Below, one piece after another: positions 7,553 to 49,700 of a stretch of DNA of 64,000 nt. Where the stretch lies: positions 9,612,001-9,676,000 of the forward strand of contig NC_087250.1 in assembly GCF_037042905.1 (NCBI RefSeq). Reading direction: 5' to 3'. Made by a program: the position numbers and the translations under genes. Under the pieces are notes generated by a model, which did no database searches, was not told the DNA's origin, and was given only the letters and a program-made list of their open reading frames with translations. The DNA comes from Lytechinus pictus (Eukaryota). How positions within the stretch are numbered: the first letter of the stretch is position 1; every line of letters begins with the position of its first letter.

Positions 7553-7584
7553 AAAGTTGAAATATACACTTCTCTCATTTTTAC

Positions 7585-19470: not shown

Positions 19471-19667
19471 TGTAGAGCAGGAGCCGGCGAGAAAACCCAA
19501 CTTTCAGGCAGGTTGACTGGCTGTCTTTAGGAGTATGTACCTCTATTCACTTTTCTTAGTCATTTCTATGACTTTCCACGTGATGTACCAAAGACCACTT
19601 TCGACATTTTTTGTTAGTCGTCTACTAGTCAACCTTTTTTTATTTCATATTCATATCATTTCCTCAG

Positions 19668-22700: not shown

Positions 22701-25700
22701 ATGGCTAGGATTTTAACCCACGACCCTCTGTTTGAAAGGCAAAAGTCAGAACCACTAGACCATGACACGCCCAAAACTCTTATCATAATCAGAGTGGTGA
22801 TGGTTGATATAATTTTTGTTTTACCTGATTGCTAAGAAAATTTGAATGCTTGTACGCAAGCATGCAGAGCGCAAAAGGGCTTGAATTCCTCTCTGAGGGA
22901 ACTGATGGTGTTTCCATAAAGCTGTTCATAATTTGTGTCAGTCAGTTATTCATTATTTACTGTAAATAATGATAATTTCAAATTAGAATGTCACACTGCT
23001 TTGTGGTCACGCCGTTTCAAAGCCATTTTTAGCAAGTTGTGAAAAGTGAGCCCCCTGAAAAATCAAAACCATATGCCTTCAACAAGGTAATCATTCCTTC
23101 CTGTTTTGCCGTATTTTTTATTGATTTAGAACCAAAAATACTTGTTCGTGGACAGATTTTCCATGTTTGATCGATACTGTTTTTCATCTCAAAATGTATT
23201 TTTCTTGTCCTTCAAATTACTACAATCAGGGGGATGTTTCACAAAGATTTAAGTATGACTTAAGTCGCACTTAAATGCCGACGCGTACATGATATGCAAC
23301 GCGGGGTCTTATTGATACATGTAGATACGCAGTAGTGCGCGTCCTCATGACACGATCTGTCCAATGCGGTCAAGCCTTTCATACCTTACGCAACTCGGTA
23401 TTTAAGTGCGACTCTAAGTCATACTCTACAAGCATACTCCTTCCTAATATGTACATGTATATACAGTGTATAAAACAAAGTATTATGCATTTATTTTAAA
23501 GTATGATACATCATTTGTATAATGTCTCATTTCTATACTTTGTAATTCTTGTATATTCTTGATTTTGCATGTTTTTAATGGAAAATAAATGAATTTAATT
23601 CAATTTAAAAAATACTTAAATCTTTGTGAAACACCCCTCTTGTTTGCGAAGTTGGTATCCTTGCTTCGAACCTTAACCTTGATATTTTTTTTTTCTGTGA
23701 TTCCGCAGCATCTCTACACATTTGCTATGGATAAGAAAGATGGGGTGGTGTCGGTAGAAGATGGCATCCGTAAGCTGAGGATACTGGACGCCAAGGGGAA
23801 GATCTGGTCGCAGGACGTCAGACTAATGGTCACAGAGAAGGAAGTGGTGCTGATGGATGAATATACTCAGGTAAATGTTTGTTTGTAGTCATCATTGCAT
23901 CGATTAAGCAACCAATATTTTTCAATTTTAATTCAAGTTTATTTTGCTCTCTGCATAAAATGAACATAATTGTGGTAAATACATGGGAACAAAGTTTACA
24001 TAACATCAAAGACATAAAAGTTTACCCCAAAAAAAAGCATTGAGAGGGAAACAGCCAAAAAGGAAAAAGAAATCCTTATAAAATGGCCGACCTAACTTAC
24101 TTTAAAAAGAATAATAATTATTGACAATATCAAAAGTAACAAAATATAAATAACAATAAGAAGACATTACAAAGGCATAGATACATAAGTGGTAAGATTT
24201 AGATTATATAAAAAAATATATTTACAAACATGTTTAATTATCAATTATGAAATTACGTTTACGTTACGTTTGAAAATATTAAATGAACGAGATGTTTTCA
24301 AATTAACCGGCAAAGAATTCCACAGTACTGGGCCACAAAAAAAAATAGATTTATGAGAAAGGCAATTTCTTATTTTAAGAAAGTGGATTAGCTTCAAAAG
24401 ATGTCTCAGATGACTCCTGTCTGACCTAAAGGATTGCAACTTACTGCATTAGCTGCAAGATTAAAATATTTATAATGAATTCAAACGCTGACATCACACC
24501 GACACAAAAAAGATATTACAATCTTTTGCGTTATGAGGTTGTCAATGAATTTGTGCCTTGTTCATCATTTACATCTAGTCATTACTGAACCAACACTCAC
24601 AATATTTAGGTTTTAACTGAGGCAGGCGTTAGTGGTAGCCATTGTTTTACCTTTGTTCTCAATGTGCTTACTACTGAATTCAGGGGTTACCGTAGGCTTT
24701 GAAAAGAGATCACCCGGTTGCATTATGTTTAACAGATTAAGATGCAGGGAGACGACAAAAAAAAACACTGAGTAGGTTACTTGCGTAGTTGATAGGGTTT
24801 TAGACTTAGAATGTTGCTGTTAAGACAGGACACACTATATCTCCTGCCATAGGCTGTGTATATTAGGATAGTCTTTATATACTTTCTTTTTTCAATAAAA
24901 AATCAAGACATATAATATTCAGTTTGGTTAAAAGGTATAATCCATTTTTCTTCCAGGAAACGTTAGAGGTGTTCCCACTGCAGGACATCGGAGCAGTCTC
25001 GGCCGAGTTAAAGCAGTGTAACTACGACAGTCTACTCGTCATCATTGTCAGATATACCAGCAAGAGAGTTCCAGAGATGATGATGTTCCAGTGCGAACAG
25101 ATCTCGGTGAGTACACTGCCAATGCAGGGAGTGGATAGCTCCCTTTTCACACCCCCAGAACAGAATATGAACATGTTTGTGTGGAAACTTTCATTGAGTG
25201 CTATTTGCAACAGTATTTCTGCATATTGTGAGGAGGACTAGAAGGAGAATGAGGTGAAGAAAATAAAGAGAAGGAGAAGGAGTGGGAAGGGGAGGAAAAG
25301 GAGGAGAAGGGAAAGGAATGGGAGAAATAGAAGACAAAAGAAGGGAGCGGATAAAGAGAAGGAGAAGAAGAGGAATTAGGAGGTGAACAAGATTGAGGTG
25401 GAGAAGAAGAAAGAGAAGGAGAAGAAGAATAAGGAGAAGGTGAAAGTGAAGGAGGAAGAGGAAGAGATGGGGAAAGAGAAGGAGAGGAAAGAAGACAGAG
25501 GATGAGGAAGAAAAGGAGGAGGATGAGGAATAAAGGGAGAGGAGAAGGAAAAGGGTGAAAAAACTCTCACTAGCATGTCATCTTTCTTTAATACACCACT
25601 TAGGAAAATAAGCTCACCATTTTGCAAAAAATGTTACATACATGTATGACAATTAAGCTTTCATGAAAGGGACCTAGCTGCATTGAAAATCTGTACTTAT

Positions 25701-28700
25701 GGACATTGGATTAAAGTATGTTTGATCCAATACATGTAGTGTGTTGCTATTAATCATCATTAAAGTGAAAGGGATAACAGTTCCATTGACAAGATCTGTA
25801 TTTTGTATGCATGCCCTATCAATGCATCTGTAAATATATTGCCTTCAAAGTTTATCATACCAAATAATTTGAACAAGGGATGATTGTATTGAAACATGCG
25901 ATGACCTTTGCCTAACTGTATACCGATTGTAAAGTTTCAGCCTGGATAAGCTTAAATCTTTTAATTTATCATTGAATTGTGACAATGGAGGCAAGAGATG
26001 GTATGTACAGTGGCTTATGGATGCTGTGCTTTTAGTGCTTTTGTTCAATGTCCAGTGTCTGTGGAATAATGATTTAAACAACAGATGTATATATTTTGTT
26101 TTGTTTTATATCCTAACCTTAAGACTTAATTTACCGGGCTATAGGCTGTATGAAGATATTTTGTGGGGGCATCTCTAGATTATGCCTGATAATTGTAAAA
26201 GCACGCTGAATATCAACATATGTGTTGCCAGTGACAGATTGATGAATGTTTAGATGGGATGAATGGATGCATGCATAGGTTGATGGATGAATTTATGGAT
26301 GAATGGATGAATAATAATAATAATACCAACATGCTTATATAGCACATATCACTGCCAAATGCGTCCCTATGCGCGCTTAATTGTATATTATTACCCTGGC
26401 TTTAGTCCCGCAGCCTTTTGCAGCACGGTGGCATTTCAAGGAATAAATTCCTGCCAGGTACCCATTTACCTCAACTGGGTCGGGTGCAAAATTAAATTTC
26501 TTGCCGGAGGAAATTACGCCATGGCTGGGATTCGAACCCACGACCCTCTGTTTCAAAGTCCGGAGACTAATCCACTGGGCCACAACGCTCCACACGAATG
26601 AATGAATGAATGATTCTCTGTTGTTTTTCCTTCATTTCACTTCCAGGCTCCAGACATCGCCAGATCCCTACAGAAGGCGGTCGATTACCATACATCAGGC
26701 AAGAAGAAGAAACAACACAGGTAGGCATTCTATAAACCAAAACAGGGCCCCATCTTACGAAGACTTACGATTGATCCGATCAATCGCAACTATGGAAAGC
26801 CAGCAAAGTCAACATATGAAATGCATGTTGGTTAAAAAAAAATTATAGATATGAATGAATATCCATAATGTCATTGATATCTTGACAATTTTGTGTGATT
26901 TCCTTTGTTTACAAAGGACATTTTTCAAATTTCCTGTAGAAAAAATTATGACACTAATGGATTTCCATAGAGTTACGATTGATGGGATCAATCGTAACTC
27001 TTTGTAAGACGGGGCCCTGTATACCATAACACAAAGGTTAGCAATTAATCGTGCACTTGATTTTCACGATTGATCGTACATTGTAGTCAATGGAATCGAT
27101 CGTAGAAAAATGTTCTTCGATCATTGCTAAGTTTTGTGTTACGTGCTCCTGGTGGGTATATTCATGAAGCTGTTTGTAAAGTTACGCACGACTGGAACAA
27201 AACTCAATTACATAGGGATATCACATTGCACACGAAAGGATCACCAGTCGTGCGTAAAGTCAATTGTATCTTACAAACAGCTTTATGAAACAAAACACCC
27301 ACCTGGGGGTGTTGCACAAAGATTTAAGTTTGACTTTTTTAATAGAGTCAATAAAATTTTGTGTTGAATATCTTGTACGCTTTGGCATTTAAGTGCAGCT
27401 CTAAGTCATACTTAAATCTTTGTGAAACACCCTACCCCCCCCCACTCCCACCCCACTGGCGTATGTGTAACATCACCCAAATAAGCCAGTTCGTAGTTCC
27501 ACCCTGCGCATGATCAGAAGATTATGCGCATGATCAGAGGAAGGTACTAAAGTTACACAGTGGTTTGAAATTTAATGAGATAAGCACCAACTTTGATGTC
27601 CCGATTATTCATTCTTTTGAATTGTGTTTTTCATTTACATCCACAAAAAACAAAGTGTCCACGAACGACTGGCATTTCACAGTTTGACAAGTATATTGTA
27701 TAACATTCTATTATATGCATTCAAAGTAGGAATGCAACAAATACCTTCATAAAGTGTTCATTGGTGTACTATTCTAGTCACCTGGTCTATTCAATTTCTT
27801 CATCCTGCTATGTAAGGCATGCTTATGTAATATCTTGCTTTGAAATCTGCCTATCATAATGAAGGAAATGAAAGGTCATTTGACCAAAATTGTCCATGAA
27901 GTAACTACGAACTGGTCTATTGCAGGCTTGAAGCCGGCTCAAAAGCCGACGGAGCCGGGTTCATGGGCATCTCGGGCCTAAGCAACACTTTGTAATGAAA
28001 CCATTACCTGGGGTCTATTTCACAGACCTCAGTGTGACTTAGGGGGAGTTGCAAGAAATTTGCGATCAATTGCAAATATTCTGTTGCAATTTTACCATTG
28101 ATGGATCAATTTCAACTATAGCAAATTAGATTATTCTGCTTGTTTGAGGAGCAGATTAGCAATTATTCACCAATTTACAATTAACTACAAGACATATGCT
28201 TGATTTAGGAACCAAAAATAGACTTGCAATTGATCGCAAGTTTCTTGCAACGCCCTTATAAATTGGTGATTATTTGCTAATCTGCTCCTTAAAACAAGCA
28301 GAATAATCTAATTTGCTATAGTTAAAATTGATCCATCAATGGTAAAATTGCAACAGAATATTTGAATTTGATTGCAAATATTTTCTTACAACACCTTCTT
28401 AGAGTCATGGTTCAACTCCAACACATTCATATTATTTGATGCGTAATCTGATGGATGGATATGCAGAAGTGCGTGTACCGTGCACGCTATCTGACCAATG
28501 TAGTGAGGCGTTAAGTTTTCGGTGCAATTGGGAATTTAAGAGCGACTCCAAGTCCCACTTACATGTAAATTTTGTGAAACCCCCTAGAGTAGACAACATG
28601 TTTTTCTCATGAACCGGCAACAGAAAATTTGTGGAGGTCAAGAATATATTGTGTGGATGCATCAAAGAAGTTATTTTACTCTTAAAAGGTATTTCGTATA

Positions 28701-31700
28701 TTTACCGAAAAAAATGTTTTTAAAATTCATTTAATTTATTTTATTCAAAAGGGTTTATTAAAAAACAAGGGTATATATCTAGCGGCTGAAAAGCCGAATT
28801 GCATAACCCTTCACAAAAATTTACATGAAAATACATTCAGCATCAAGTCAATAAGCTCAATTTACACGGATTCTGCATCATGAGAAATGGCAAAACACAT
28901 AGAAATGTTGTTAATCACGTTGGGGATGCATGTATTAAATTATGACACGCATTCCCATCATGATATTTGAAAATACATGCGGCCAAACGATATCACAAAG
29001 TCAAACCAGTGATATATAATTTTGTTCTTTTTCAGGACATGTTATTCAATTTCTTAGATAAAAAGGGTGTAGACATGACCCACACAATGTCTATTCAACC
29101 TTCCTTCACAAATCTTACACGAACATATATACAAGCAAATAGACGGATATGAATCATGAAGGATCGACGGTATTAGGCGTCTCTTTTTTCATGTCACGTA
29201 GAGCTCATATCAAAACATGGACATGAATGTTTACTTTGTTTAGATGCTGATTGGTATCGAGGGATCTTTCATGGAACTGAAAATCAATTTTAGTTCCCCA
29301 AACCCAGAGCTGCCAGCTAATACTGATTATTAGTACTGAAAAATTAGAAGATTCAGTTTAGGTGTAGTCCTACGGTATTTCTTTGAAAATATTGAGTTCT
29401 TTACCAAAATACTGTTTTTTTTTAAAAGTTTTTAAAATGCTGACATGTTCTTGTTCAGGTTTTCTAAAGATTCAGTTTAGGTGTAGTCCTACGGTATTTC
29501 TTTGAAAATATTGAGTTCTTCACCAAAATACTGATTTTTTTTTCTTCAGTTTTTAAAATACTGAAATGTTCTTGTTCAGGTTGGCAGCTATGTTTACAAG
29601 CAATCCATAAAATGTTTAAATTGGCAATCTTTATCGCAACGTTCATGCAATTTGATTGATTTTTTCTGAACAATTAAAAATAGGGTTTGATGAATCATTC
29701 TACAGGTTGTTCATCAATCTCAAAGTTGATGTTTTAGCTCTATAAAACACCCTCTCTGTATTTTGATTTATTTTAAGAATTATCAGCTTCTCCTGTTTTC
29801 AAACCATTTGGACAATGTGTCTTTTGAAACTGTTACATTTCATAAGCCTATACATTTAGCTTTTGAAATTGGCAACAACAAGATATTTGTCATTGATTTG
29901 TATTCTTTAATACCAACCATTTGATTTGCGCATGGCATTCTCTAAAATATCAGGAATTTTTCATCCTTTGTGTTTTAAGACCAATCCGAAATCCATTCTT
30001 GTTTGTAAATGGGTATTCTTTGTGCATGTTCTGTAACAACACCATTGATCATGATTTTCCTTTAGCTTCAGATAAAACACTGCATTGCTATAATATTATT
30101 AATAGGATGCAGTTTCTCACATCTTGTTCCAAACTTTAGAGGTCATAGAATTTGCATGATTATTTAATCTTGTGATTAGTACCAGCAATTTACAGAGAGT
30201 AAATAACACTGTTTGGCTTGTCTCTCAACCTTTTCTTTTTTCCCCTTTGATCATCCCTCTTTGTCAATACCATACTTCCATGTCGGTTGTTGGAGGTAGA
30301 GAACCGAATGCAGTGTTGAAATAATGCCTTGTTTACTTTTAGTCGAACTTTGATGCCACTTATTGTTAATATATGAGTGCCGTGGATCATTTATGATTTA
30401 AAATTTGCTGAAAGGAATGTCACTCCATTCTACGCAAGTTTGTAAATATATATAGCTCTTCACATCCCCCTTCCCCCCCCCCCCCCCGATTCTGAGTTTT
30501 GAACTTTCTACAAATGATATTTCATTCTGTTTCATGTTATTACGCTTTTATCAGTTCTGGTTCATATCCTTTGAAAAGTGTAGGTCACTATATTCCAGTT
30601 TGTTCAATATATATGATTATGAATGTGTATATTAAACATGTTCCTTATTTAGTAGTTCTTTATTGTGTGGATGATTGTGTTTCAATTAATGTATTTTGTA
30701 CTAGTAAGTTTACAATAAATGTATACAAGTTAGTTGGCCAAGATTTCCCCCACAACAACAAAAATAATAAGAAAAAAAAATATAATGAATGAAAGAATTG
30801 ATAAATAAACAAGCAAATAAACGAATGAATTAAATAGATTAAATAATTACTAAATACATACATGATTGAATAAGTAAATAAATGAATAAATAAATGAATA
30901 TAAATATAAAGGTCAATAAACAAATTACTAAAACACATGAAAAATTCTTGAATAAATAAGTAAAGAAAATAGAAGAAGCCCTGAAAGAGGAAGTTCTAAG
31001 CAGAAGAAATATTTTCTTTGTGTTTGTGTGGTGAAGAAATTGTCATGTACAATATGAAATATGAAGAAGTCTTATCACCATCTCAAATTTGTCATAATGT
31101 CTATTCCCAGATTATATATCAGCAACCACATAAAAAGACCAAGAGAAAGAGAGAGGGGGGGGATGGGGAATCCGGAAAAGGAGGGGGCTGGGGAAATGGA
31201 TGGAGGTAATGGAGAGAGGAACAGAGAGATTGAGGTATCTCAAAGGACAGAGACAGGCAGATAGGAAGAAAGAGAACAATAAAAGCTGCCTCCTAACTTC
31301 AGTGGGTGTTACCCATGGCAACAGTAATAACAATTCCAATGCCAAGGAGATCCTCATCTCCTCCATGTTTTCAATGTATTTCTTTGACCTTTGACCTTGG
31401 CAGGGTCACCGGGGAGCAAATGTACAGTCTAAACTTGAACTTCCCTGCTGAAAGTCTGTTGTGATGGTAGACTTGCCATTCAGACACCTTGCCAATTTGT
31501 ATTGTACTTGCAAAGTGGAACCAAGCTAGCATTTACGCATAGGGCCCCCTAATTTGCTTTTATCTAAAATACAACATTTTGATGAAGCAGGGAGGAACTT
31601 ACTGATAAACCTCTCTGGGGTTTTGATTTGTGGGGGGGGGGGGGCTTGGGTATTTACTATTACAAGAAGTTTTGTTTTCAAACTTAAAAATTTCCTGGCG

Positions 31701-34700
31701 TTTTGTAATCTGAGTAGAATGTCAACCTCAAATCAAACCAGGTATGTTATGTGTGGGTATCTTACAATTAGCCATACACAATAATGTATGCAATCAATCA
31801 TAGAAATCAGCCCCATAAGCAATGGCAAAGCTTTACGGTAAGGCAGAACCCCCCCCCCACCAAAAAAAAATGAAAATAAAAAAATCATGAGCAAAAACAG
31901 GTATTTTCTGTATGGTTATTTTTCTATTTATCATGCACAATAATCAGTGCAGTCAATCATAGAAGTCGGCACATGATCAATTTCTAGACTTTACGTTATA
32001 AAGCCCTGAAAACACTTTGTGTTTGTGAAAAAGACTGTTCTTGAACTTGAAGACTACCCTCCTGTCGATAGCTAATAAAACTGCTGTGACCAAGGAATTC
32101 AGCTACACCCACAAAAATGATCCCAATACATACCCTTCATATCATACCACCCTTAATGCAATCTGGTATGTTCTCGGGATTGGTGACGCAGATAACTTTC
32201 GCTCTTCGCTTATATTTTGAAGATATTTAGAATGGATTATGCACAAATAGTGGCTTATTTTGCCGAAATGTACCGGTAAGAGTTCCTTCGTGGATGTACA
32301 TGTACAGTAGTTTGTGGTTTTGATTGAAATAGATTTCAATAAAATGTGATCTGGTATTGAAGTGAGTTTTTAGTGCGTTTTCAGGCTCATTTTGATATTT
32401 GATGGGGGGCTGCGAAACAAAAGTTTTTTGCGATTGATCGCAACTTTTCAGCGAAAGACTTGCAACTCATAGACCTTAAACAATAGTGGTTGTTTGCTTT
32501 AATACAAACATTCATGGAATATGCCAGAGGGGCAAATAAGTTGTGTATAACTTTATGCCTACTTCCAAGTTTAATTATAAGGTAAATGCTCTCTTAGCAA
32601 TCAGGTAAAAATAATTACCATTTTCCATTTACCATTATAATGATTATAATAATATTCCATTTTTACTAAAATATACTAATGTATTCCATTTTTACTAACA
32701 TATACTAATGTATACATGTATGCATCACAGTGACATCTCCAAGCCTTTTACATATATCTTTGTACATGTACCTCGATCATCAGATCCTTGCCTGCATACT
32801 TTGTTTGCACTTTCTCCACTCCCTGGGGAGCATTCAAACAAGGGTTTCCAAACTGAATTGCCGGATATATACTACATAAATCATCATTCTGTTGCCGATA
32901 TAGCCAGCCATTGATTGGTTGGAAGCTTTTAATTAGTAGCAAAGTTCTTTCAGTGCCTCTGTTTTGTTCCAAATTTTGACTCAAAATAAATTCTGACATA
33001 TAGATCTCTTTTTACCTCACATGCTGTTACACTTTTAGATCTGTAGAATGGTATCAAAATTGGGGAGGGGGGGGGGGACTTTGTTAATTCTTCTCTTAAT
33101 CTCGACTGGACATGTACATACTAGACATCACGCTAGTCGATAGAAAGGTATCCATAAGGGGGTGGGCATGTACTTTGTACATGTATATTGTAGCGTGAAA
33201 ATTTACCGCATTTAGAGGGGGGCATGTACTGTGTAAATTGTAATGTGAAAATCTACCGCATTTACACATTTTCACAAGAATTGTTTCAATATGGGGGTGG
33301 GTGTACTTTTCGAATTCTACTCTAAATCTTGACTACATGTACATGTACATAGATTGCACTAATAGATAAAACGGTATCAACAAAGGGATGGGGATGTACT
33401 TTGTATATATTGTATATCTACTGATTTTACACACATTCGATAGCATGATCTCGATGTGGCAGGGATTGTCAACAGATGTACTGTACTTAAATCCTACTCT
33501 AAATCTCAACAACTCCTACTTTCCAATAGAATGGTATCGATATGGGCACTAACACAGGACGAAGAACCAAACAAATAACCACATTGTGCCGGTTAGAAAG
33601 ACAGAAATTTAAAGTAGAAAGTAAATTATTTATTTAGCCTTGTTATGTAATGCTGAAGTGGTTTGAATACAAGATGGAACCTAGATGTGCTTCAAAGAGG
33701 CCTAATTTTCCTAAAACTGTTTATTTACTGTATTATTTTTGGCCTGTAATACATGTACATGTACAAAGCATGGCAAACTACCAATCGCTATGCTTCGTTA
33801 CAGGGCCCGTAATGCTTTATTTGATCAGATTTTTTTCCTTCTCACTGGCAGCATTTGTATTTTTTTATTTTTTTTTTAATACATGTACAGTAGCTATATT
33901 TCCTTTTTTTCAAATATACTTTAAAACTTTGCCTATAAAGTTGAATAGTTTACAGAAGTCTCATCAACTTTGGAGTAAATGGACCTGGTGGGTGTTTCAT
34001 AAAGCTGTTCGTAATTTAAGAGCGACTTTAAGAATGACTGGTGATCCTTTCTTGTGGTAAATGGTAGATTCATTGGCGATGGTTCAGCGCATAAGAAAGG
34101 ATCGCCAGTCGTTCTTAAAGTCGCTCTTAACTTACGAACCGCTTTATGAAAATATGTTCATTTACAACAACAACTGATTCAATCAATTCACCAATCGAAT
34201 CCTAGTGCCAATATCAAACAATAATGAAATAAAATCATGAATATTTTTTTAACATCATGGTTACCCTTTTCTTTTTTCTGGCAGGGAAAGGGGGGGGGGG
34301 AGGGAGTAGAAATGTGTTTTGGGCATTAAATGTGTGTATGATAATATGATACCAAGTATCAAAAGCGCAGTTGAGTATATGCACAAAGTAACTGCACTAT
34401 AAAGTTGAAATGGACATCTTATTATTATTATTATTATTATTATTATGAACTTTGTACCCATTGAAAGGAGTATCGGTACTGCACCTGGTTTTATTATTCA
34501 CATGTTTTATTCATGTGTTCCAGAGTGTACCTGTCCTTTTGTTAAGGTAAATGTTAAAAATAACCAGATAAAGGGAATTAGTTGGATATCTGAGTAAACA
34601 TGTGCATTAAAAGAGGAAATGGAATGTCATTTTATCAACAGAGCTTGTCAACGGTAACAATAGAATTCTACATTTTCATAGAATAGAAAAATAAATTGTG

Positions 34701-37700
34701 TAGCATATCACTTGGAAATGAGCAATTTGACAAGACTAGGTGTGCATTTACTTACAAAAACTTTATTTTGTCATGTTGTTTATGGGTATGTTTCACTTTT
34801 GAAGTCCCATCAGGGTTTATTAAATCTTTAATTTTATGACATTTTGCTGATATTTTTTGTTTTAATTTTGATTACAAATTTACTGTAGTATGAGTGTATG
34901 GAATAAGAAATTGGTGCATATTAGGCGGGCGCGTCATGGTCTAGTGGTTCTGACTCGCCTTTCAAACAGGGTCGTGCGTTTGAATCCTAACCATGGCGTG
35001 TTTTCCTTCAGCAAGAAATTTATCTGCACTGTGTTGCACTCGACCCAGGTGAGGTGAATGGGTACCCGGCAGGAATAATTCCTTGCATGCACGTAAGGAA
35101 ATTTCATTTATTATAGGCATATCATCTGTACATGATGTATAAAGACCTTGTAGATATCATATACAAGTAAACCTTAAATACAGATATTATTATTACACTC
35201 AAGTGGGTCTACATTGCAAGACTACAAGTGCTCTGAATGTTGCATTGTGGGTTTAGAACCTGGCCAGATTTTGAGCAGTTGAGGGTTTGTGATACAGCTG
35301 CACAAGGCTGATGGGCGGTATCTCCTTTAAAAAGGCAAACCACACACATTAAATGATGCCCCCTATCTCTTGTGTAATCAATTCCACCCAGGTCGGAACA
35401 CTATGGCATGGTACCCGGAGGACCGTCCCAACCACAGATGCAGTCACAGGCCCAGGTCCATGGGGACGACAGACGGATGGCCTACGACGCCGACAACATG
35501 TTCATCCCGCCCCCTCCCGATGAACCTGCCCCGCCCCCACCCATCGATGTCCCTGGGAACGTCAAGAACAAGGTGGCAGCCTTCGCTGCTGCAGCTGCTG
35601 CTGCACAAGGTACATGTAGGAAGAATGGTTAACATCAATGTGACCATTCACCCCCAAACCAACAATAAGTCGCCAGCAAAGGTTCTCTGTAAATAGCTAA
35701 AATTATAGTAATTGGTGTTCAAAAAGCATAATTTTGTAGATTAGCCTATCTAATGGCGCTGTCGCATTTCCCATACGACGGCCGTAGGGTGAGTTGAAAA
35801 CATCCATTTTAACATTTTTTTGTACCAGCTACATGTAGGTGCTTTGAATAAAAATGTAAACAAAAAAACTGCTGTTTCTGACTTGCCGTACGTCTGCCGT
35901 AGGGGAAAGGTGACTGCAGCATTAATGGAAAATTTTTCTTCTTCATACTGTCAAAATTTCAAGTTTTCGAATTGAATCGGAAGCAACAAACACGAGTTTC
36001 TTTGACACAGTCATGTTTTTGTGGAAGTTTCAGAGAGATTGCACAGCGTGCTGATCTCATGCTGAAGTGAGCCCCAGAATTCAAATAGCTTTCTCACTTT
36101 TCCCAAGTTCTCAATTGAAATCAATCATGTATTTGTGGGGGTTATTTTTAAATAAATTTTGACATTTTGTATTTAATTTGAAGCTTAGGATATGCTTCTT
36201 TTTAACTTAAAACAAAATCTCAAAATTAATTATGGGAACTCTATAGTTGGTGTGGGCTGATGGGACTGGTCAAATACATGTATTGTCTTTTTCCTTTGCT
36301 GTGTGTTGATTCCTTCAATGAATAGCTGAGAAACTAGCACATTCCCCCTCTTCACTGCCTCCATTATTTCTCTTTCTACATGTAGCTCCCCCATTTCTGC
36401 CTATTCCTCTATCTCTCTCCTTCCCTCTCTCGTTCTAAATGGTTGTGTTCATCTGTAACTCACCCCTCCCAACCCGGGGGGGGGGGGGGTTTCCAAAAGA
36501 AACCCGGATGAGTAGACTTCAATGATGTAGGACAGAATATTGAGTGTGTTTTTGTCCGCGATTGTTGTAATTTTCAGGTTATCTTGATCATAGAGTATCA
36601 CGAACTAGAATTTGTAAGTATTTTTTGCGTGAAATGGGCAAACACGTATGGGGTAGCTGTCAGGAAAATTAACCAATATATTATAGATGTTTACAAGTTA
36701 CCAAACACTTTGCTCTATGTGAAAAAAAACTATGAGGCAATATGGTTCATGAAATTGAATGAGGCGGTTAAAGAAACACCATGAAACATCCAGCCGTTCA
36801 TTCTATTATTCTGCACTCTTAACTGAAGGATGTATCTCCCCTGCACATGCACATAAAGTCGTCTTGAATAGTGGCTCTTTTACATGTAATTTGATTTCTG
36901 TTTTAAGCTAACCTTAATCTTCTTATTTTTGTTATTATTTTCACTGTTGTTGTTCATCTTATTTTTGTTTAACGCTACTTTTCACAATGGATGTTATGTC
37001 ATCGAGGGTGTTTCGACCTGTATTAATAGTGAAGACTGTTATCATATAAAGTTTTTGTAACCTTGTGTGTAAATGGCATTGATCTGTGACTATCTGATAT
37101 TAGGTTTGTCATCAAGGTTGTTCCAGTTTCTAACAAAGTGATTATGTCTGTAGTTAATCATTTATCCATGTGAATTTCCTTTCTTAATTACATGTACATG
37201 TAATGTAAATTATATTTGGATATTAGGTATCACATTATTTGTATTCACATTAAAATATATTGATTTTATAATGGTTTGTTATCAGAGATGTTCCAGTTAT
37301 GTCATCCATTATCATTCAGTCTTGTGGAAGTTTGCATTTCAACCAAAGAAAAGGGAGAGATGATTTCAGTTGGTATTTGATATTGTTTATTTTGCTTGTT
37401 GATCGAAACCTCTTGATCCGATATGGTTTCCTGGTAGAAAATACATCCAATGAGAATACTATCCCACTGATAGAAAAAAAAGACTGGTATCATTTATTCA
37501 TATGTGTTTTGTTTCTACCTTGCATTACTTTCAATGATAATTATATCAAATGTACATGTATATGTCTAATGAAAAAATTAAAAGACTAGAACAATATGTT
37601 CACGTAAATTCTGTTTTCACCTTCCATTAAAGTGAATGGGAATGGTATCTCACCTAGTGGTGTCCAGTCTGGAAGAAATAGGCAGACTGGTATCATTCAT

Positions 37701-40700
37701 TCAAATAAGTTCCCTGACTACTTTTCATTACAACAAACAGGAATTGTTTCTCGCCAAAGGGATAAATAGTAAAATGAAAGACTGGTATTAGTTATTCATG
37801 CAAGTTCCTTTTTTACTTTCCATTACAGCAAATGGGAATGGTATCTCACCAAGGGGGTTCCAGTCTCCTAAATCAGCTCCAGTAAGGTCAGCAGAGTCAG
37901 AGGAACCTATTGAGTTGCTTGCTATGAGGACAGAGAGAGATGTGGTAAGAGAAAACTTATTGAAATAATAGAAATAACCCTAACAACAAATTTTAATTGG
38001 AATAGGAAGATGGAGAAGAGTAAGACAGAAGAAGAGGAAGAAGAAGAAGGAGAAGAAGAAGATGAAGAAGACAGAGAAGAAGAAGGAGAAGAAGAAGTAG
38101 GAGGAGGAGGATGAGGAGAGGGAGCCATAAGGACACATAATAAGTAGAGGAAGAATAAATATACAAATTATTTATTCAAGTTGAAATATGCAGCAATGAA
38201 ATAAAAAAATGCTTCATGTAATGTTATCAATGTGAAGAATACATTTTATCACACCTACAAAGCCTACATATAATTGATATCCTGAATTTAATTTTCGCTA
38301 TTCACAGGAAATTCTAAATCACTGCTTCGATGACATTGAGGCATTCATCGGCAGACTACAGAAAGCTGCCGAGGCATACACAGAGCTAAGCCGGAGACGT
38401 CAGACCAGGAAGAATCGTCGGAGGGAACATGGTGATGGTCTCTTATTGGCTAGGTCAAGACCCCCTACGGATGGGGAATATATTGAGTGCTTCCAAAAGT
38501 TCAAATACTGTTTCAATTTACTGGTAAGTTTGTGAGCAGCACACATTCGATGAGAGGACTTATTCTTCGAATCTATCAAGTAGGGATAAGAAATTTTCTT
38601 TCTGGATTCCAAAGCCGGTCTGGTTTAAAAAAAAAAGGTTTTCAGATAGATGGATGTCAGAAATTTCAACCCAATAAACAAATAGAAATCAATCGATATT
38701 TCAGTTCCAAACAGTCAAAATTCTCTACAATAAATTAACTTTATAACGAAATTCATTTCCAGACCATAATCAAAGATATTGAAGCAGATAATATGTCTTA
38801 ACTCGCTTTCTGATCTAAAATGGCTATTCTGACAATGTCTCTTACCCTAGCTTGTGTAATACAGTGTGCAAATGAATTGGCCATAAGATTTATGATGCTG
38901 TACATGCACATGTATAATATTATTGTTATGTATCATTGATTCTACTATCAATCCACTCCAACTCTTTCTTACTTCTTCCAGGCAAAGCTGAAAGCCCACA
39001 TCCACGACCCCAACGCCCCCGAGCTGGTCCACTTCCTCTTCGTCCCCCTGAAGCTGATCATCCAGAGTTGTCAAGGTCCAGAACTCGCTGCCAGCGTGGT
39101 CTCTCCCCTTCTGAGCCCCCAGGCGGTGGACCTCCTACAGAACTGCCTCACGTCTCGAGAGAATGAGCTTTGGATGTCTCTTGGCAGGGCTTGGACCTTA
39201 CCATCGTAAGTAACCCTCAGCCTGTTCAGTCCTGGGGCCCGTCTTACAAAGAGTTGCGATTGATCCAATCACAAGTAACTCTATGGAAATACATCAGTGC
39301 CATAACTTTTTTTCTACAGGAAATTTGCAAAATATCCTTTGTAAACAAAGGAGAACACACCAAATTATTAAGAAATCAATGAATTCATGGATATACATTC
39401 ATATCTAGAAAATCTTTTGAACAAACATGCATTTTATATGTTGACTTAGCTGGCTGTCCATAGTTGCGATTGATCGGATCAATCACAACTCTTTGTAAGA
39501 CGGGGCCCAGGATTCTTCAGGCATCTTGTCAAATTGTTGTCTGTGCGAAATCTATTAACAGGAATCCTGTATAATTATCCTATGAATCTTTTCACGGTGA
39601 CCCGACATTTGCTCCTGCGAAAATTGCTCCTGGCTTCAATTTGTCTAAGATGTGGGGTTGGGGTTGCAGTAGGGTTTTATGTTAGGTTTAGGGTAGGGTA
39701 TAGTGTTAATCTAGGGTTGAAGTTGGCGATTCTATTAATGTGTGGAGTCTAGAGTGGAGCAATTGTCGCTGGAGTAAATGTTGTGGAACCCTTTCATAGT
39801 GTCTTTCCTGCATTCCCTCTAAATTAACGTGTAGAAATCTAACGATCGATTATGGAAAGCAGCTTGCAGGAATCCTTCAGGAAAGACGTGGCTGTGAAAA
39901 GCCTTGTGGGATTCCTTTGGGAAAGGCATGGCTCTCATATTTGATTTGTTGTCCTTGGGCTAATACTCGCATGGTTGTCTTGAAATTAAGTGTAATTTTA
40001 TTTCTTTTTTTTTATATTATGTTGGAAAATCTGTTAATCTTGAATAAAGTTCTGAACTATGGTTTAATTCAAACTCTGTTATGAAGTTATGGTTTATCTA
40101 TGGATAGCCAATTGTGACACAAATCAATATATTTGCAATTCATCAGCTCATGTGACCCTAAATTCACTCAGACACTCTGGGAATAATGACTAAAACAGTT
40201 TTTTTCAAGCAAGTACAAGGTAAGAGCACAGTAAATAATAATAATAATAATAATATAGGGTATTTATATTTCGCACATATCCACCTTGTTAGGTGCTCAA
40301 GGCGCTCCTATATTACCCGGCTAAGCTAGGCGTTCATAGCGCACACAGGTTTTTAAGGAATTACTTCCTACCGGTACCCATTCACCTCACCTGGGTTGAG
40401 TGCAGCACAGTGTGAATCAGTTTCTTGCTGAAGGAAATTACGCCATGGCTGGGATTCGAACCCACGACCCTCTGTTTCAAAGTCCGAAGACTAATCCACT
40501 GGGCCACAACGCCATCTATATGTACATTGTTTTGACAAAGTTTACTCTCCATAACCCTTGCACAGGGATAGACCATTGACTTTGGAATATGGGCCTACAA
40601 TACATGTATGTAACAAATCTACCATGTTGATTTAGTTCAGTTGAAATACCATACACTCTCATGCAGCATTACCGATAATCTTGTACCATTAATCCCTGCA

Positions 40701-43700
40701 GAACCGAATGGCCCAAGGATCGCCCCGTCTCCCGCTACGTCCCGCGCTTCCGCGATGGATGGACACCGAGACCTATCACTGAACCCCAGACTCATCAAGA
40801 CTTCAATACCAGCGTGCTGGTCAACAATGCGTCAGTTGCCGCCAGTGCTGCTGCAGTGGCTCGGGAGTCGCCAAGGAGGCTCTCTGAGAGGGTAAGAGAG
40901 ATTGGGCTTTGATAGAGATATATTGCTGGTCAATGAAAAATGTGTGTGAAAGCATAATCGGTTAGTCTTAAACAGTTCGAGTAACTATGAGATATCTCAA
41001 ACAAATTCATGACAAAGTTTTTTATCCTTTCTTGATTGAATTCCATTAAGTATGGTGTACATTGAATTGCTTGCATTAGAAAGATGATAAACAAGTAATT
41101 TTATTCATGAATATGAAGTAGCAAAGCATTGTATATTGCACACAACTGTGAATTTTAATGTGACTTTTATAGTCACCTTTCAATCTTTAGTGGAACACCT
41201 AATATATATAAACCTATGATGGTACTATAATTTTCCAATAATGATGAATTAGCAAGGGAGCATCGTGGTGTACCGGTTCTGACTCTCACCTTGTAATCAG
41301 AGGGTCATGTGTTTGAATCCCACCATGGCCTATAGCATCCTTTGGCAAGGCATCAATCCAAAATTTGCCACTCTCGACCCAGGTGTTAATGGGTACCTGG
41401 GAGTGGAGAAGGTGCATACATTGTATGCGGGCATGCCAGGATCTAATGACTGGGGTAATAATATATCTGTAAAGCGCTTAGAGATGTCATTCCGATGTAT
41501 TTAGCGCTATATAAAAGTGGATTGTTATTATTACTTGATTATCTGCTGAGCCTTGTGACCAGAGTAGGAAGTCCTCAATAATACAGACCCTGGATTTTCT
41601 TCTCCGAAAGTAAAATCCTCCCTTGTCCCTTCCCTTTCTTTAATTTCGCAGAGCGATCAAGCGGACGGCCCGGTTTTCGGCCACAACCATCAAAGGCAAC
41701 CTTCCAACGATAGCGGACACATCGCTAACGGGCCGATCATCCATAGCAACGGGCCCAATGCCCACTCAAATGGACCCAGTACTCACACGAACGGTCCAGC
41801 TACTCACACAAACGGGCCCATCGGTCACTCACATGGACCTTCCATCCATGCTAATGGGAACGGTTACCATCAGCGACAGACCTCGGACCCATTGGCCCAT
41901 AGTCCTAGGTAAGATTTTAGGCATTGGTTCACATTAATAATCATTACCATAATTCCCCTTAGGCAAGAATATCTGAAGACAACGAAAATGAAAAGATTCA
42001 ACAATCCCTTCAAATCCCTGTTGCAAAAATTTCTTGCAAAACCTTTTATATTCAGATCAGAAATAGTAAAAGGTTCAGATAAATATTTTTTTTGGGTGTA
42101 CTTTAATCTTTTTTTCTGTTCTTCTTACATAGGACTTCAGCAGTTCCTACCCCTCCCCCTCCAGCTCCGAAGCCAGTATCCAGCCCCACCCCTACCCGCC
42201 CTGGGGCCAAGATGGCGACCGCCATCTTTGATTTCGTCGCACGCAACTTCAAAGAGCTGACCATTATGGCAGATGAACAACTTGAGGTAAATATATTGAG
42301 ATAAGTAGTGGAATCCGAGTAATCATAATAGGCATTAATGCATGTATGTATGAATGACTTTGTGATATTTGACTAATTAAGCAAAAATTCTTCAAAGAGC
42401 TAACCATCATTTCTCCTGAAGATAACAAGAACACACTTGTCAAAACGTCGAGTTTGGGTTGTCCTTCTCAGGACCAACACTTGTTCTAGAAAGATACATG
42501 ATGTCCCGTGAAACCTACTACATTATCCTTCTTCGCCATGGAAACCTTCAGAAGTTACAACAAAATTTCCTCTTCAGTGAAAGACTTGCTGAAATTCCTT
42601 TACCTTAATCAAATAATGATTTATGTTTACAGGAAAAAGTTTAAAGTTTACAGGACTGATGTTACAAAATCATATCAACAGTTTAAAAAATTTGTTAGTA
42701 TCAACTTCTTGTAGGTTCTTGTCTAGGCCAAGATATATACTGCTTTAAACATTGTGAGCATCGACATCAATTAATGATACCTTTCTCTTCTCTGACAGGT
42801 GTTAAATGACCAACGTAAGTGGTGGGAGGTCAGGAATACCTCAGGCCAGTCTGGTTACGTTCCCTCAACGCTCCTCAAGATTACCTCACCCTCTCCAAAC
42901 ACCAACACCAACTCAAATCACGTCCCAGAGCCGCCAAACACGCTACCGCCCCCTCCTCCATCTATGTCAACGTTTGGAGTGAGTATACATGTTGGTGCAA
43001 TAGGATTGTAAACGTATGTGACCTGCCCCCCAAAACCAGCAATAAGTCAACCAAATTGATTATTGCAACTTCTATTGAGCTTAAGAATTCACTTCCTAAG
43101 CTTTAAAATGATATATACATGTAATATGTTAAAATTTACCAACAATAACCATTACAAGTACTTGATTGAATGCAGAGGAAACTTTGCAAGAGCTTGTTTG
43201 GGGTTCACTCAAGCATGAGATGTGCATACCGAGTAATCTCAGTGAAACTTCCAAGCAGTCCAAAAAAGATGTGTCCAAGAAACTCTTGTATCCTTTCTTT
43301 TATTCAACTTCAAATTTCACAGTATGAAGAAGAATTGCTCTTTCAGATAAGCTATTTTTTTATTTTTGGTTTTTAGAGACTAATTACTCTAATTTTGGCT
43401 ATTTACAGTGATCCTTCCCTGACGGCTTATTGGTGATTTTGGGGTGGTATGTCACATATGTACATGTATTCCTGCTTTCTCTATTGAAATGGTAGGATTA
43501 GACAAAGAAGTGAAGGGGCCGAGTTGCTTTTGTGATTGACAATTGTAATTGTAATGTCCCCTAGTCTCACTAAGGTCCCGTTACACTAAGGTTAGCGATT
43601 AATTGCATGCTTTATTTTCTTGATTAATCATACAATGGAGTCAATGCAATCAATCATAAACAATGTTCTACAGCGATTGCTAAGTTTGTGTTGCAGGTCA

Positions 43701-46700
43701 CAGGATAGTTTTTCATGAAAGGTGTCAGATTCAACAAATTTTTCTCTGGAAATGAATTGTGCTGTGCTTGCTCGCTTTGTGATGCATACTAAAGTTGGTT
43801 ATATTTTTTTGGTTGTTGTTTTAGGCCCCGCCCCCTCCTCCACCACCACCCCCAGCCGACGGGTCAGGTAGACCAAATTCAACTCAAAGTAAGTATCACT
43901 CTAGTTATGTAATTATCTACTAAATTGTACTATTTTGTCTTTTCGTATTTGTTAATTTCTTTGATCTTTGTTTCTTTTTTTTCTTCTTTTTTTTTGAGGC
44001 TCTAAATCTATTTTTTTCCTGTTTTTCTTTTCTTTGATTTTTGAGGGTTTGTTCGTACATGTAATTGCTTTTGTCCTTTCCTTTAACCTTCCGCCCTTCA
44101 ATCTCGTCTCCATTTCTAATATTAATACTAATAATGTTATATTTTTACCCAGGGTAGCCACTTCAGTTCTGAAAACTGTTCTACCAGCTGGCCCTGCTTA
44201 ACATCATAATGTTTTTCCTTCTTTATATCTCTTTATTTTGTGTTTACTGTGGATTTGTTTCTGTTTCATTCTTTATTTATTGCCCTTAGAATGCTTTGAA
44301 ATAAGTTGGCTTACATGTATATATAAACAGTGAGAGTAAATAATAGAACTTCAGATATATTTCATTCTTGGTTTCGTAGAGATTAGTTTATACATGAACT
44401 CAGAAGTAGTTATTTATCTGTGTTACCATTCTTTTTTACTTACTGTTTTTTTTTCTTACTATGTTTCTTCAAGTACCCAAGGGTTGTAATCAGCACTTGA
44501 AATGCAACATTGACACCGTTTTCTTTATACTTTCTAAAACTAGTTTACTGGAAATCGGTTCAGGAAACCGGTTTGGAAGATCGCTTTGCTAGCGTTCCCA
44601 TTTGATCAGCCGCAAGTGTTTTTTGAAACCACTTCACATAATGTGGCTTTGTTGCTATGAGAACGCTGTCAGTGGGGGTGACATGTTTTGCGCAAAATTT
44701 GAAATTGCAGCGTGGACATTCTACACACAGTGTGTGGAGGAGCGCGCTTTAAATGTGCGAAGATTGCTTCCGAAAAACGGTTGTGTCCTCACGCTAAAAC
44801 AAGTTTAACAAGGGAAAGCAATCTTGAAAACTACATTGGGAGGTGGTTTTTTGAACTGGTTTGGAAGATCACTTCCAATACTGCTTGGACCGTTCTCATT
44901 ACAAGTTAAACTAGTTTCCACTAAACTGGTTTTAGGGCGGTAATGAGAACGGGGTCATGATAATCAGCCTTTATTGGTTGTTCTTTTCTTTTGATTGTTT
45001 CTTAATGATTTATTATCTTTCAGAAGCAAATGGTATGGACTTTGCCACGCAGCTCCAAAACACATTAAAGAACAAACAGTTAAGACCATCAAAGACACAG
45101 GACAGAGGTGAGTGGTACCAGCATGAACCAACTCTAAAGTTAAATAAATTTAGTTGCGGTAAATACTGATTTCAAGAGAAAGCCTGTAAAACCAAGGTTA
45201 ATTGTCACTACACCAATGTAAATCTAAATCTGATGCAGTTATATCAAATGGACTTTGTGAAAAACGATCACACTGAATGAATTCCTGATTTAACTTTAAG
45301 TGATCAGTTTAATTTACATTTTATTAGCATGTGGGCAACTCAAAAAAAAATAATCCCTTTTTCCTTCGTCCCACCTCCATTTCACTCGATTCTTCCTGTA
45401 CTTGTGTGATGTGCTCAGGTCCTCATAATTTCTAAGCATTACAATTTTTCAAGTGAACTAGAAAACACAGACAATTTATTCCAGTTAAGTACCACATGTA
45501 GACGAACAGATGTACAATTTTTTGGGGGGAATTTCCCATTGTCAACTGATATCATTTTAAAGTGTACAAGTAATTGAAATGATTTCAATACATTTACCCC
45601 AGCGACAACATGGCGAACATGGATAATCAGAATAATTTTATTACATTTAAGCTGGCGGTTTCTTGGAGTATTTTGATGTCTACACCATACATGCCATACA
45701 ATGAACTCTTTGATATCTCTTAAATTATCCTAATCATCAGATTTTTTAACCAAGAACACTAATCCAATCCTCACCCTAATACTTCATCCCCAGAAAAATT
45801 ATGACAGAAAGATAATTGTTGAAATAGTTTTCACATTACTAATTTATCATCATAACGGTTTTTATATTAAAGCTAAGTTCAAGTTCTGGTATAGAAACTT
45901 AATTTTGTTAGGAAATAGTTGGAAGCAATCTTAAAGTATTTGCCGTATGCCAGAATGCTTATTTAGAACAACAAAGTTTAATTAAAATAATTCAGGCTTG
46001 CTAGAGCGGGGGTTTCAGATTCCAGTGACCCGGGTTCAATTCCCACTTGGTGCGCTAGTGCCCTTTGGTAAGGCATTCATCCCCATTAGTAGGTCCCTCT
46101 GAGAGGACCTTAAGCCGTCGATTCTCTGGTTGCTTGCTTACAAGCATTCATGCTTTCTTAGCAATCAGATACAAAAATCACCACTATAACCATATTACTA
46201 CATGCTTTTCCTGGTGCGTAGCTAATACAGGAAACATCGTGTGGGACCACATCGTGATAGAAAAGCATTTTTCAGTAATTTTTCTGATCTTCTATTGCTT
46301 ATTATTACTCTGTAATTATTCATTGTCCTGAAAGATCATTTCATAAATTTCATTTATAGTTTTTATAATTGAATGGAAGTTTTGTTCTGTGACTGTGAAC
46401 ACAAAATTTTCTGTTGTTACCAGTACCAGAGTTTACCTTTAAATATTTTATCATCTGTCTGCAGCATTGTCATCTAGCAGTCAGTACGACACCCTCCAGG
46501 AAGAGCTCAAGAATCGCGTCAGCAACGGAGGAAAGGCAAAGAATTACCGCATTCCAAGGCGAAGTATCAGCGATGTCTCCCTGACGTACGATTCTGGTCG
46601 GGACGATGTGAAGAGATGGCTTGAATCCAAAGGTTTCAGTCCCATGTAAGTTGTCTGGAATGATGGCTGGTAGAAAGAGAAATACAGAGGGTAGTAGTGA

Positions 46701-49700
46701 CAGAGTGTGAGAAAGCTAGTTGATTTAAATGAATTAAGTATTTTTGGAAATGCCCCTACCCCTACCAACTCCCTTCCTATCTTCCCATAAAGATAATATA
46801 GAAAAACATCAGATGTTAGCAGTCTAGACTCTAAATTCTGATATTGGACACCGATCACCGATACCATGTCTTTGCTTTATACCATTCCATTCTAATGTAC
46901 ACCTTATCACATAGGACTGTGCACAGTCTTCAAATTCTGAATGGTGCCCAGTTGTTTAGTCTAATCAAAGAATTGTGTATGTTCATGCCATCATCTCCAT
47001 TATTTGGTAAGATTCTGGAAAGAGTCTATTCTTTGAGATTGATATAATTTCTCTTGTTCATACCATCCCATTCTTATGTACACCTTATCACAAAGGACTG
47101 TGCACAGTCTTGGAATCTTGAATGGTGCCCAGTTGTTTAATCCAAGCAAAGAAGTGTGTATATTTATGCCATCACCTCCATTTTTTTTTAGATTCTGGAA
47201 AGAGTCTAATCTTGGAGATTGATATAATTTCTTGTGCTTATTATGTATCATTCTTATGTACACCTTATATGATATGAATGTGCACAGTCTTGGCATCTTG
47301 AATGCTGCCAAGTTGTTTAGTCTAAGCAAAGAAGTGTGCATGTTCATGCCATGATCTCCTTTATTTCTTAAGATTCTGGATGGAGTCTTATAGATTAGAT
47401 TGATATCATTTCTCTGGCTTATACTGTCCCATTCTTATGTACACGTTATCGTATAGGACTGTGCACAGTCTTGGAATCTTGAATGGTGCCCAGTTGTTCA
47501 GCCTTACCAAGGAAGAACTGCAGCAGGTTTGTCACGACGATGGCTCCAGGGTATACTCCCAGCTCATGATCCAGAAAGCTGCTCTACAGGTAACTTTCCA
47601 GACCAGACTTTAAGGGGGTTGTTGCACATAGTTGTAGTTGATTGCGAAATTATGTTGCAATCTATTGCATAATTGTGATGTAATTGATTGCATAATTATG
47701 GCGCAAGTAATTGCAAAATAATGATGTAATTGATTGCGAAATTATGTTGCAATCTATTGCATAATTATATTGCAATTGATTGCAAAATTATGATGTAATT
47801 GATTGCGAAACTATGATGCAAGTTTTTGCAAAATTATGTAATTTATTGCAAAATTGTAGTGCGATTGATTGCATTATTATGATGTAATTGATTTCAAAAT
47901 TGTGCTGCAATTGATTGCATAATAACATGACAATCGATTGCATATTTATTTTGCAATTGATTGCAAAAATATGTTGCACTTTTGTGTAAGCTTGTTTTAT
48001 TTGGTATAATGCACCTTACATGTTTAAAAGTGTCTTCACTTTGTTCATCATTCATCACTCACAATGTTGATCATCACTTAGTGACTTAGTGTAATAAAGA
48101 ATCAATAAAAGGGAACCGACTAGAAAAATATGGAAATAATGATGGTAGAAATAAAATCATAATAGATAATGAAAAGCAACAATAAAGAAGAAATTAAAAA
48201 TGAAAATGAATGAAGAAATAATTGGATGAATGAACATATGAATAACTAAGTAAATCCATAAATAAATGAATACATAAATAATGCATAGATAAATAAATAA
48301 AAAAATAAGTGAATAAGAAATAAAAATAAATAAGTTTATGAAATAAATGAATAGAAGTATTTGAAAGAATATTATATAGAAACATGAAGCACATGAAGTA
48401 AAACAATAAATCAGGTATTAAATAATAAAATGAAATAAAAAAAAATCATAATTGCCAAAATCTAAGGGCTTATGAACCAGTGCCACACCTTTTACCCTTC
48501 CAATTTCTGGCTTGCTACACACAATGTATGGAATGCCTAATGTCCCAGCAAAATTTGCTCAGAAATTTACTCCATCATCCATCCATCATGATAATTTAAC
48601 TCAATATATATTTTGCTGTTCAATGACAAAAGGAAGGAATTCTTTTCTTTTCACAATGGACTTTTTCAATCTGCAGAGTTGCTTCCTTTTGTCATTGGAC
48701 TGCATTATGGATGTTAGGGCATGCTGCGTTATGTGTGCATGTACATTTTGTTTTTCGGTCAGTCCTATATGAATATGTTAATTCTGTGCTCCCCAAAGTT
48801 GTTAATTGCACTAAATAATCGAAAACATTAATTCCGTTTATAGATATTAATTTTTCGGGCATACAAAAAAATTGGGGTTTCAGTGTTATGTAATGTCATT
48901 TCATCACATACCCTCATATTATTTTATATACTCTTCATTGAATTCATATATACACATAGATTCTAGTTTGAGGAGTTAATCATGAAACATGAGGGGAACG
49001 ATTTGAATTCAATTAGATATTGCTTTGGGATTCAGAAAATGAAATAGCTTTTGACCAATACTCTGGTAATTGGTTGATAGAGAGGCTGACATGTCAGTGG
49101 TTTACAGCTTAACACAGATTGCAAAACATGAAAAGTTCAGAAAGGTACAAGTTTGCACACAATTTTCTGTTACAAAATGCAACACAGAAAGACTATTTTG
49201 AAAGGGGTATATACATGTAAATCTGGCAGATGTATGCCTTATATTCATAATCATTGTCATTTTCTGTATTAATTTTTTTTTTATTCCAATTGAATTAATA
49301 TGTAGACCAATACAATACTGCAACTAGTTCGTAGATTCCTGGTGTAATTGTGGATTTTCTGTAATTTTGTTGCAAAGTGTTTTTTACTTTTAACACATTT
49401 AACACACACGTACATACATGTATACCCCTAATACATATCAGCCGGTATTTATAATTAATAGTTGCACATGCTTTTCCCCCATGTGCCTACGGTGGTCCTT
49501 TTAAAATTATGATATATGTTCAATATTCCATCCACTAATATTGTAGTAACCCTTTCATGATGTATGGTATCCCTGTGTGTATTTGTTTTGTCCATGTATA
49601 TTATAAGGGGGATGTGTGATAATTTGATATTAGCCTTTTAGTTTTTAAATAATCCCTAATATATATATTTTTTTCAAATTTTAAAGAAATTGATGTTTTG

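Follow-up and report, generated by a model that had tools for sequence, protein, structure and literature searches.

At the end of coding exon 7 of an EPS8-like gene of Lytechinus pictus, two GT dinucleotides stand six letters apart, which raises the question of how this arrangement came about and whether the cell splices at one of them or at both. The first-pass annotation of this locus had proposed that a transposon footprint remodelled the splice donor and may have created a two-residue micro-isoform. In our view the best overall explanation, to which we assign a probability of roughly 60%, is the insertion and later excision of a Tc1-type element at the TA of the donor, with splicing kept at 35609. 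All coordinates refer to the window, i.e. the whole 64-kb stretch of DNA that was analysed.

Judged by its sequence, the gene in the window is the eukaryotic EPS8-like gene of L. pictus. The exon-sized open frames on the plus strand resemble EPS8-type proteins, and translation of 35393-35608 is 100% identical to P0001, whose name at the source is epidermal growth factor receptor kinase substrate 8-like, Lytechinus pictus. The EPS8 family domains of P0001 are found in its precomputed Pfam list (PF08416, PF00018/PF14604/PF07653, PF18016, PF22975), so that the PTB, SH3 and C-terminal EPS8 domains that together define the family occur in this one protein, and the window itself encodes P0006: a scripted spliced model with 21 coding exons reproduced this RefSeq protein exactly. 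In this model 35392-35609 is coding exon 7, as the earlier numbering had it, and the first contig of run X1 spans 35389-35609 with 0 differences from the window. The exons that matter for the question are the following:

35392..35609, plus strand: coding exon 7, a proline-/alanine-rich linker ending ...AAAAAAAQ plus a G (P0006 model; 100% identity to P0001)
36578..36613, plus strand: 36-nt cassette exon, in P0001, P0006, P0010 and P0011 and absent from P0007, P0008 and P0012
37829..37944, plus strand: next constitutive exon (exon 9), starting CAAATGGG... (P0006 model), to which exon 7 or the cassette is joined

Diadema setosum and three sea stars have in common with L. pictus the EPS8-type gene, its domains and the Q/A junction after the alanine run, and this shared junction indicates that the end of exon 7 is old. 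The comparison is one of proteins only and silent on intron sequence, and the 36-nt cassette was seen only in L. pictus models.

Concerning the donor itself, the observation of the first-pass annotation was right in every detail. Positions 35606-35622 read CAAGGTACATGTAGGAA, exon 7 ends caag/GTACATGTAGG between 35609 and 35610, and the two GTs lie 6 nt apart in the same phase. Joining to 37829-37944 by coordinates yields ...AAAQANGNG from 35609 and ...AAAQGTSNGNG from 35615, as had been predicted. With six letters removed, the donor changes from GTACATGTAGGA to GTAGGA, and the resulting caag/GTAGGA resembles the donors of exon 2 and exon 6 (gtaggt, gtaggc). These six extra letters can be placed in three ways (35611-35616, 35612-35617 or 35613-35618), and as in a footprint there are extra letters between two TAs, G-TA-CATG-TA-GG at 35610-35620. 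The donor thus comprises three features:

35610..35611, plus strand: GT of the used donor, AAG/GTACAT (all 7 RefSeq models; X1 contig ends)
35616..35617, plus strand: second in-phase GT, CAT/GTAGGA, use not detected (no QGTSN model; X1 unbroken at 35615)
35611..35618, no strand assigned: TACATGTA, candidate Tc1-type excision scar, TA + CA + TG + TA (sequence, class-level insertion evidence, outgroup open reading frame P0013)

Protein models and RNA-derived contigs both bear on which GT is used. The 90% cluster of P0001 comprises eight proteins, of which seven span the junction, the eighth (P0009) being a 183-aa piece. Three of the seven (P0007, P0008, P0012) read Q-A-N-G-N-G and four (P0001, P0006, P0010, P0011) read Q-G-Y-L-D-H-(R/K)-(V/G)-S-R-T-R-I-S-N-G; both forms derive from the exon end at 35609, and QGTSN, the product expected from the second GT, is found in none of the seven RefSeq models covering the junction. 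The actual alternative splicing after exon 7 is that of the 36-nt cassette, which is present in 4/7 models and missing in 3/7. It adds 12 residues, its last letter starting the next codon (S), and it is allelically variable, since ...DHRVS... is replaced by ...DHKGS... in earlier versions of the models.

Run X1, for which the records give no library type, is RNA-derived, because one of its contigs (record 6) joins 37827-37943, 38307-38522 and 38981-39205; its exon joints are read from where assembly contigs branch, and such contigs drop rare variants. The X1 contig of exon 7, with a depth of 35.8, terminates exactly at 35609, and the unspliced record 2 (35580-35960, depth 4.36) passes 35615 with neither branch nor break. 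Record 6, which carries exon 9, starts two letters early with AG, followed by CAAATGG. Both ...CAAG, where the exon ends, and ...ACAG, where the intron ends, close with this AG, and an exon ending in ...ACAT would share nothing with the latter. In the raw RNA runs X21 and X22, where the depth on exon 7 is only 0 to 2.6, no junction reached the listing threshold.

The letters around the two GTs can also be compared with the other donors of the gene. The used donor AAG/GTACAT has C at +4 and A at +5, and the displaced GT has G at +5 and T at -1. Four other donors of the gene do without G at +5, and all of them have AG at -2/-1, like AAG/GTACAT; six others lack G at -1, and all of these carry [A/G]AGT at +3 to +6, unlike CAT/GTAGGA. 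On this within-gene comparison at -2/-1 and +3 to +6, the first GT falls into a functional class of donors of the gene and the second into neither class.

Use of both GTs, with a micro-isoform that differs by two residues (QAN vs QGTSN), is therefore quite unlikely, although the two GTs are in phase, the second one, with its G at +5, is similar to the gtagg donors of exons 2 and 6, and the raw-read depth on exon 7 (at most 2.6) is too low for rare junctions. Against it stand the 0/7 RefSeq models with QGTSN, an X1 contig graph that branches at 35609 and not at 35615, and a second donor that has neither G at -1 nor the AGT at +4 to +6 of the six comparable donors. The donor at 35616 is probably not used, and the cell appears to splice at the original position, 35609/35610. 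The first-pass annotation had further named two findings that together would speak against its reading, a motif shared with outgroups and a single junction in use; only one junction was indeed seen, but the one readable outgroup lacks GTACATGT.

Closely spaced in-phase GY donors are known as tandem alternative 5' splice sites. The exon-7 donor is similar in that two GTs lie a few letters apart and in phase, and it differs in that only one GT is seen used here and in its 6-nt spacing; we refrain from describing it as such a pair.

Turning to the origin of the motif, TACATGTA is the most frequent octamer of the window other than simple repeats. It occurs 55 times; 100 dinucleotide shuffles gave 1.95 copies on average and in no case reached 55. 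The 811.7-Mb assembly contains 224,046 copies (0.276 per kb), about 7.6 times more than the 29,568 copies of a control palindrome of the same composition, TATGCATA; the reversed word ATGTACAT has 85,448 copies. The one-mismatch neighbours of TACATGTA are barely enriched (75 vs about 59 expected), and most copies therefore look young. No description of the motif in urchins was found in the searchable literature, a coverage outside which subscription journals lie.

The copies are clumped. Within the window they peak between 32 and 40 kb with 17 sites, and upstream of it the adjoining 10 kb contain 11 copies and the preceding 10 kb seven, all of them in the second half. By comparison, the background amounts to 23 copies in 200 kb (10-kb pieces, 20 in number, taken at arbitrary positions on 20 contigs), and pieces at +0-10 kb, -50 kb, +40 kb, -200 kb and +190 kb contain 2, 2, 0, 0 and 1 copies, respectively. 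This delimits a domain at about 9,596,600-9,671,000 of contig C6 in the L. pictus assembly (G000), with 73 copies in about 75 kb or roughly three times the genome mean:

1..58982, no strand assigned: window part of the TACATGTA-rich domain, whose limits lie about 15.4 kb upstream of the window and at about 59 kb within it

Relative to 250 kb of background, no word is more enriched in the domain than TACATGTA itself (72 vs 8.8 expected). Another word, AAACTAGTTT, is enriched there as well, but it was set aside because it stems from a single repeat present in two copies. Clumps of this kind exist outside the EPS8-like locus too, since the double form TACATGTACATGTA, with 9,353 copies in the genome, is visibly clustered along contig C1.

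The flanks of TACATGTA are unrelated from copy to copy, and we compared copies within repeats to their best non-self paralogs in a 345-kb pool. Among 16 informative sites, 12 showed a gap at the motif, three only substitutions and one the same motif, and three clean pairs have TA in one paralog and TACATGTA in the other at flank identities of 96%, 92% and 85%. Conversely, 13 insertions of 6 nt were listed between paralogs of at least 80% identity, representing about 10 distinct events; five of these listings (four events) create TACATGTA, and three (two events) read as TACGTGTA, i.e. TA-CGTG-TA. The latter fits element ends of the type CAC...GTG after unequal trimming, one letter on one side and three on the other. 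As far as paralogous sequences tell, TACATGTA thus behaves as a unit inserted at TA sites.

The target sites have a signature of their own. Across 104 sites, 55% of the 208 half-sites carry A at -3, and hence T at +3, compared to 34% at generic TA, and A at -3 with T at +3 is the target preference of the Tc1/Sleeping Beauty group. The copy at the exon-7 donor has A at -3 and A, not T, at +3, so that it fits a Tc1-like target on one side only. For a related element, one report describes no more than a preference for a palindromic AT-rich target site (PMC7913693).

A family with suitable ends resides in the genome and looks recently active, as far as its open frames and match scores indicate. 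At least 150 scored matches to the transposase domain DDE_3, out of 729 candidates, are mostly open frames near 364 aa with near-identical scores, and the copies often form head-to-head pairs 1.3-1.7 kb apart. The single copy that we read, L036 (contig C6, 8253701-8255900), has a 342-aa open reading frame with HTH_Tnp_Tc3_2 and DDE_3, inverted ends of roughly 200 nt and the termini TA/CACTACTC...GAGTAGTG/TA, i.e. TA/CACTAC...GTAGTG/TA. The extra letters of the candidate scar, CA and TG, are the terminal letters of this one copy. Fragments of the family were not detected by BLAST with the L036 copy in the 355 kb examined, nor did a chained-HSP search yield an insertion of the form TA/CA...TG/TA. 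Two other candidate sources were rejected. The MITE-like CAGGGGCC elements of the window are not cleanly TA-flanked, and a 5-kb pair in L030, with TA flanks and perfect 16-nt ends, is a long inverted duplication with no transposase open reading frame. As to the latter, the structure (L030, 2760-7852) lies just downstream of the window, has inverted arms of roughly 500-700 nt that are 90-95% complementary and carry G-runs, and contains an internal array of about 42-nt repeats and no transposase-like frame.

Scars of this kind are known from Tc1/mariner elements, for which one source describes that cleavage of the non-transferred strand falls a few nucleotides within the element and that, after end-joining, the first or last 2-4 end nucleotides remain between the TAs (PMC6943129). 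In C. elegans, according to another source, Tc1 mostly leaves +4 scars, TATGTA or TACATA (PMC12632400). The urchin unit shares with them the TA target, the retained duplicated TA and CA or TG end letters in between (PMC12632400), and differs in being a +6 unit in which both CA and TG are retained. Neither +4 word is enriched in the window (TATGTA 31 vs 37.1 and TACATA 42 vs 47.6 by Markov expectation). The Sleeping Beauty footprint follows the same Tc1/mariner principle of end nucleotides between two TAs, as set out in the source cited above (PMC6943129). Its words TACAGTA and TACTGTA result from a 3-nt stagger that leaves a 7-bp scar with the CAG of the element, unlike the urchin motif, and they are not enriched in the window either (7 vs 6.3 and 6 vs 5.2).

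Could the donor motif have arisen with no transposon at all, by slippage or duplication of CATGTA/TACATG, by another TA-directed break and repair, or by point changes? The tandem doubles are what slippage would give, and the three doubles in the window as well as the genome-wide number of them speak for such an origin, as do the missing source element in the 355 kb examined and the unenriched +4 scars. However, single TACATGTA units sit in unrelated flanks, paralogs differ cleanly by TA versus TACATGTA, the bias for A at -3 matches Tc1-family targets, the inner letters of the motif equal the ends of the resident Tc1-like family, and the three doubles compare with about 1.2 expected from random second hits at about 1% of TA sites. 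We thus regard a transposon-free origin as unlikely. That the motif is a transposon footprint, in turn, is likely: this part of the first-pass annotation is borne out by the TA versus TACATGTA differences between paralogs, the Tc1-like flanks, the TA/CA...TG/TA ends of the resident family and an outgroup protein (P0013) that is incompatible with GTACATGT, whereas its micro-isoform is not. Contrary points are the unenriched +4 Tc1 words, the four of 16 paralog comparisons that show no gap and the absence of the family from the 355 kb examined; nor did any allele or species that was seen carry an element at this TA.

The outgroup protein comes from a search with the read-through open reading frame, which retrieved one protein (three candidates) and no such frame from a close relative. 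P0013 is an ENA protein of 68 aa, an outgroup urchin open reading frame that is 70% identical over exon 7 and reads through the donor as ...AAAQGKDNE-stop, a reading at the protein level only. Since Q-G-K-D-N-E requires GG-N-AA-R after CAA, its intron starts with GT-AAR, and the same residues exclude GTACATGT at this donor, as GTACATGT would give Q-G-T-C. Furthermore, the stop of P0013 lies two codons before that of the L. pictus read-through, which corresponds to 6 nt.

Organism B is a closer relative, with 5 of 218 letters different in exon 7 and 23-39 differences (roughly 8-11%) in each of the intron contig pieces, which cover 276-361 window letters. Its DNA contig over 35378-35676 has no substitution listed between 35555 and 35623, and it leaves out 14 letters and puts in one. 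The 14 letters are assigned to 35638-35651 by argument only, in that boundary variants of the adjacent repeat start at 35638 or at 35652 and the contig ends about 30 letters into the repeat. Organism B probably shares GTACATGTAGG, and if so, the motif was gained before organisms A and B split and after the split from the species of P0013. With no substitution and probably no gap at this place in organism B, the donor motif is not very young. The same finding would suit the view that GTACATGTAGG is the older state of the donor and that the outgroup frame reflects a later loss rather than an insertion in L. pictus. This we consider very improbable, because P0013 has a consensus-like GT-AAR donor with the stop two codons earlier, and because the paralog comparisons generally show a gain at TA within repeat copies.

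For the donor copy we infer insertion and excision by a Tc1-type element, the 2-nt stagger and the responsible family, and the course of events would be as follows. The ancestral donor of intron 7 may have been something like caag/GTAGGA or GTAAG. A Tc1-family cut-and-paste element would have entered the TA at donor positions +2/+3 and later left again; target duplication would restore the left TA, so that a donor AAG/GTACA... could still be read with the element in place. On excision, a 2-nt stagger on CA...TG ends would yield TA-CA-TG-TA, and repair that keeps the duplicated TA together with CA and TG would turn the site into G-TA-CA-TG-TA-GG. In the resulting donor, AAG/GTACATGTAGG, the exon side AAG and the GTA would be intact and the cut would stay at 35609/35610, and the price of the scar would be a weaker intron side, with G at +5 lost, C at +4 and A at +5. 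The unaltered AAG and GTA would explain why splicing still occurs at 35609/35610.

Nothing suggests that splice sites are targeted. The 55 copies in the window correspond to about 1.1% of its 5,055 TA dinucleotides, and 16 of the 20 donors of the gene begin with GTA; at this rate about 0.17 hits in such donors are expected, so that the hit in exon 7 lies within chance. The scar looks like an ordinary tolerated mutation in a scar-rich region and is of little consequence for the EPS8-like gene itself. Excision scars of transposons at functional sites are a known kind of event, to which this donor likely adds a tolerated example. On a small scale it also illustrates, in nature, how one part of a 5' splice site can compensate for another, as a donor with C at +4 and no G at +5 still works, apparently because its exon side AAG is strong.

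More interesting than the donor is the genome-wide pattern of about a quarter million scar-like palindromes and their clumping. We propose, tentatively and at slightly less than even odds, that well over 100,000 germline excisions of Tc1-type elements have left a readable fossil record in the L. pictus genome, in the form of intact TACATGTA scars clumped into domains of tens of kb by local hopping or by targeting at the level of domains. The EPS8-like locus would be one such domain, its 73 scars being spread over about 75 kb and most crowded near exon 7, and scars would occasionally fall into functional sites. Should a Tc1-like family of this laboratory urchin leave TACATGTA as its standard scar, past excisions could be counted and mapped from sequence through the 224,046 copies of the motif. 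It would then become possible, in a deuterostome model, to measure how cut-and-paste elements choose their targets and hop locally, and what mutational load they impose. L. pictus is now used as such a model for transposon transgenesis.

Several repeats surround the exons discussed here. One of them lies in intron 7:

35638..35965, no strand assigned: foldback repeat of high copy number, centred on CTACATGTAG at 35829-35838 (own-genome search, loose-end complementarity)

It begins 28 nt past the donor. A search of the own genome gave 458 candidates, whose matches begin at about position 99 of the query, equivalent to 35638; in many copies 35704-35930 is missing. The repeat has depths in the thousands in both organisms, and its loose ends are mutually complementary. 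Before exon 9, 37481-37856 holds a tandem array of four copies, each about 100 nt long and 62-77% alike, that runs up to the exon; the last copy contains the true acceptor together with the initial 28 letters of exon 9, and the second copy (37583-37660) a look-alike of the exon 9 start, TGAATGGGAATGGTATCTCACC. Near the beginning of the window, 3000-4350 is a G/T-rich tandem array (GC skew 0.40 in 2001-4000) with long minus-strand frames of repeated HTHTH-like peptides, which is probably a minisatellite and not a gene. Finally, a short interspersed repeat occurs in both orientations at 22587-22832, 26311-26631, 34872-35107, 40385-40594 and 41283-41500; in one frame it translates to ...GIRTHDPLF...PLGHNA..., and it looks like a tRNA-derived SINE.
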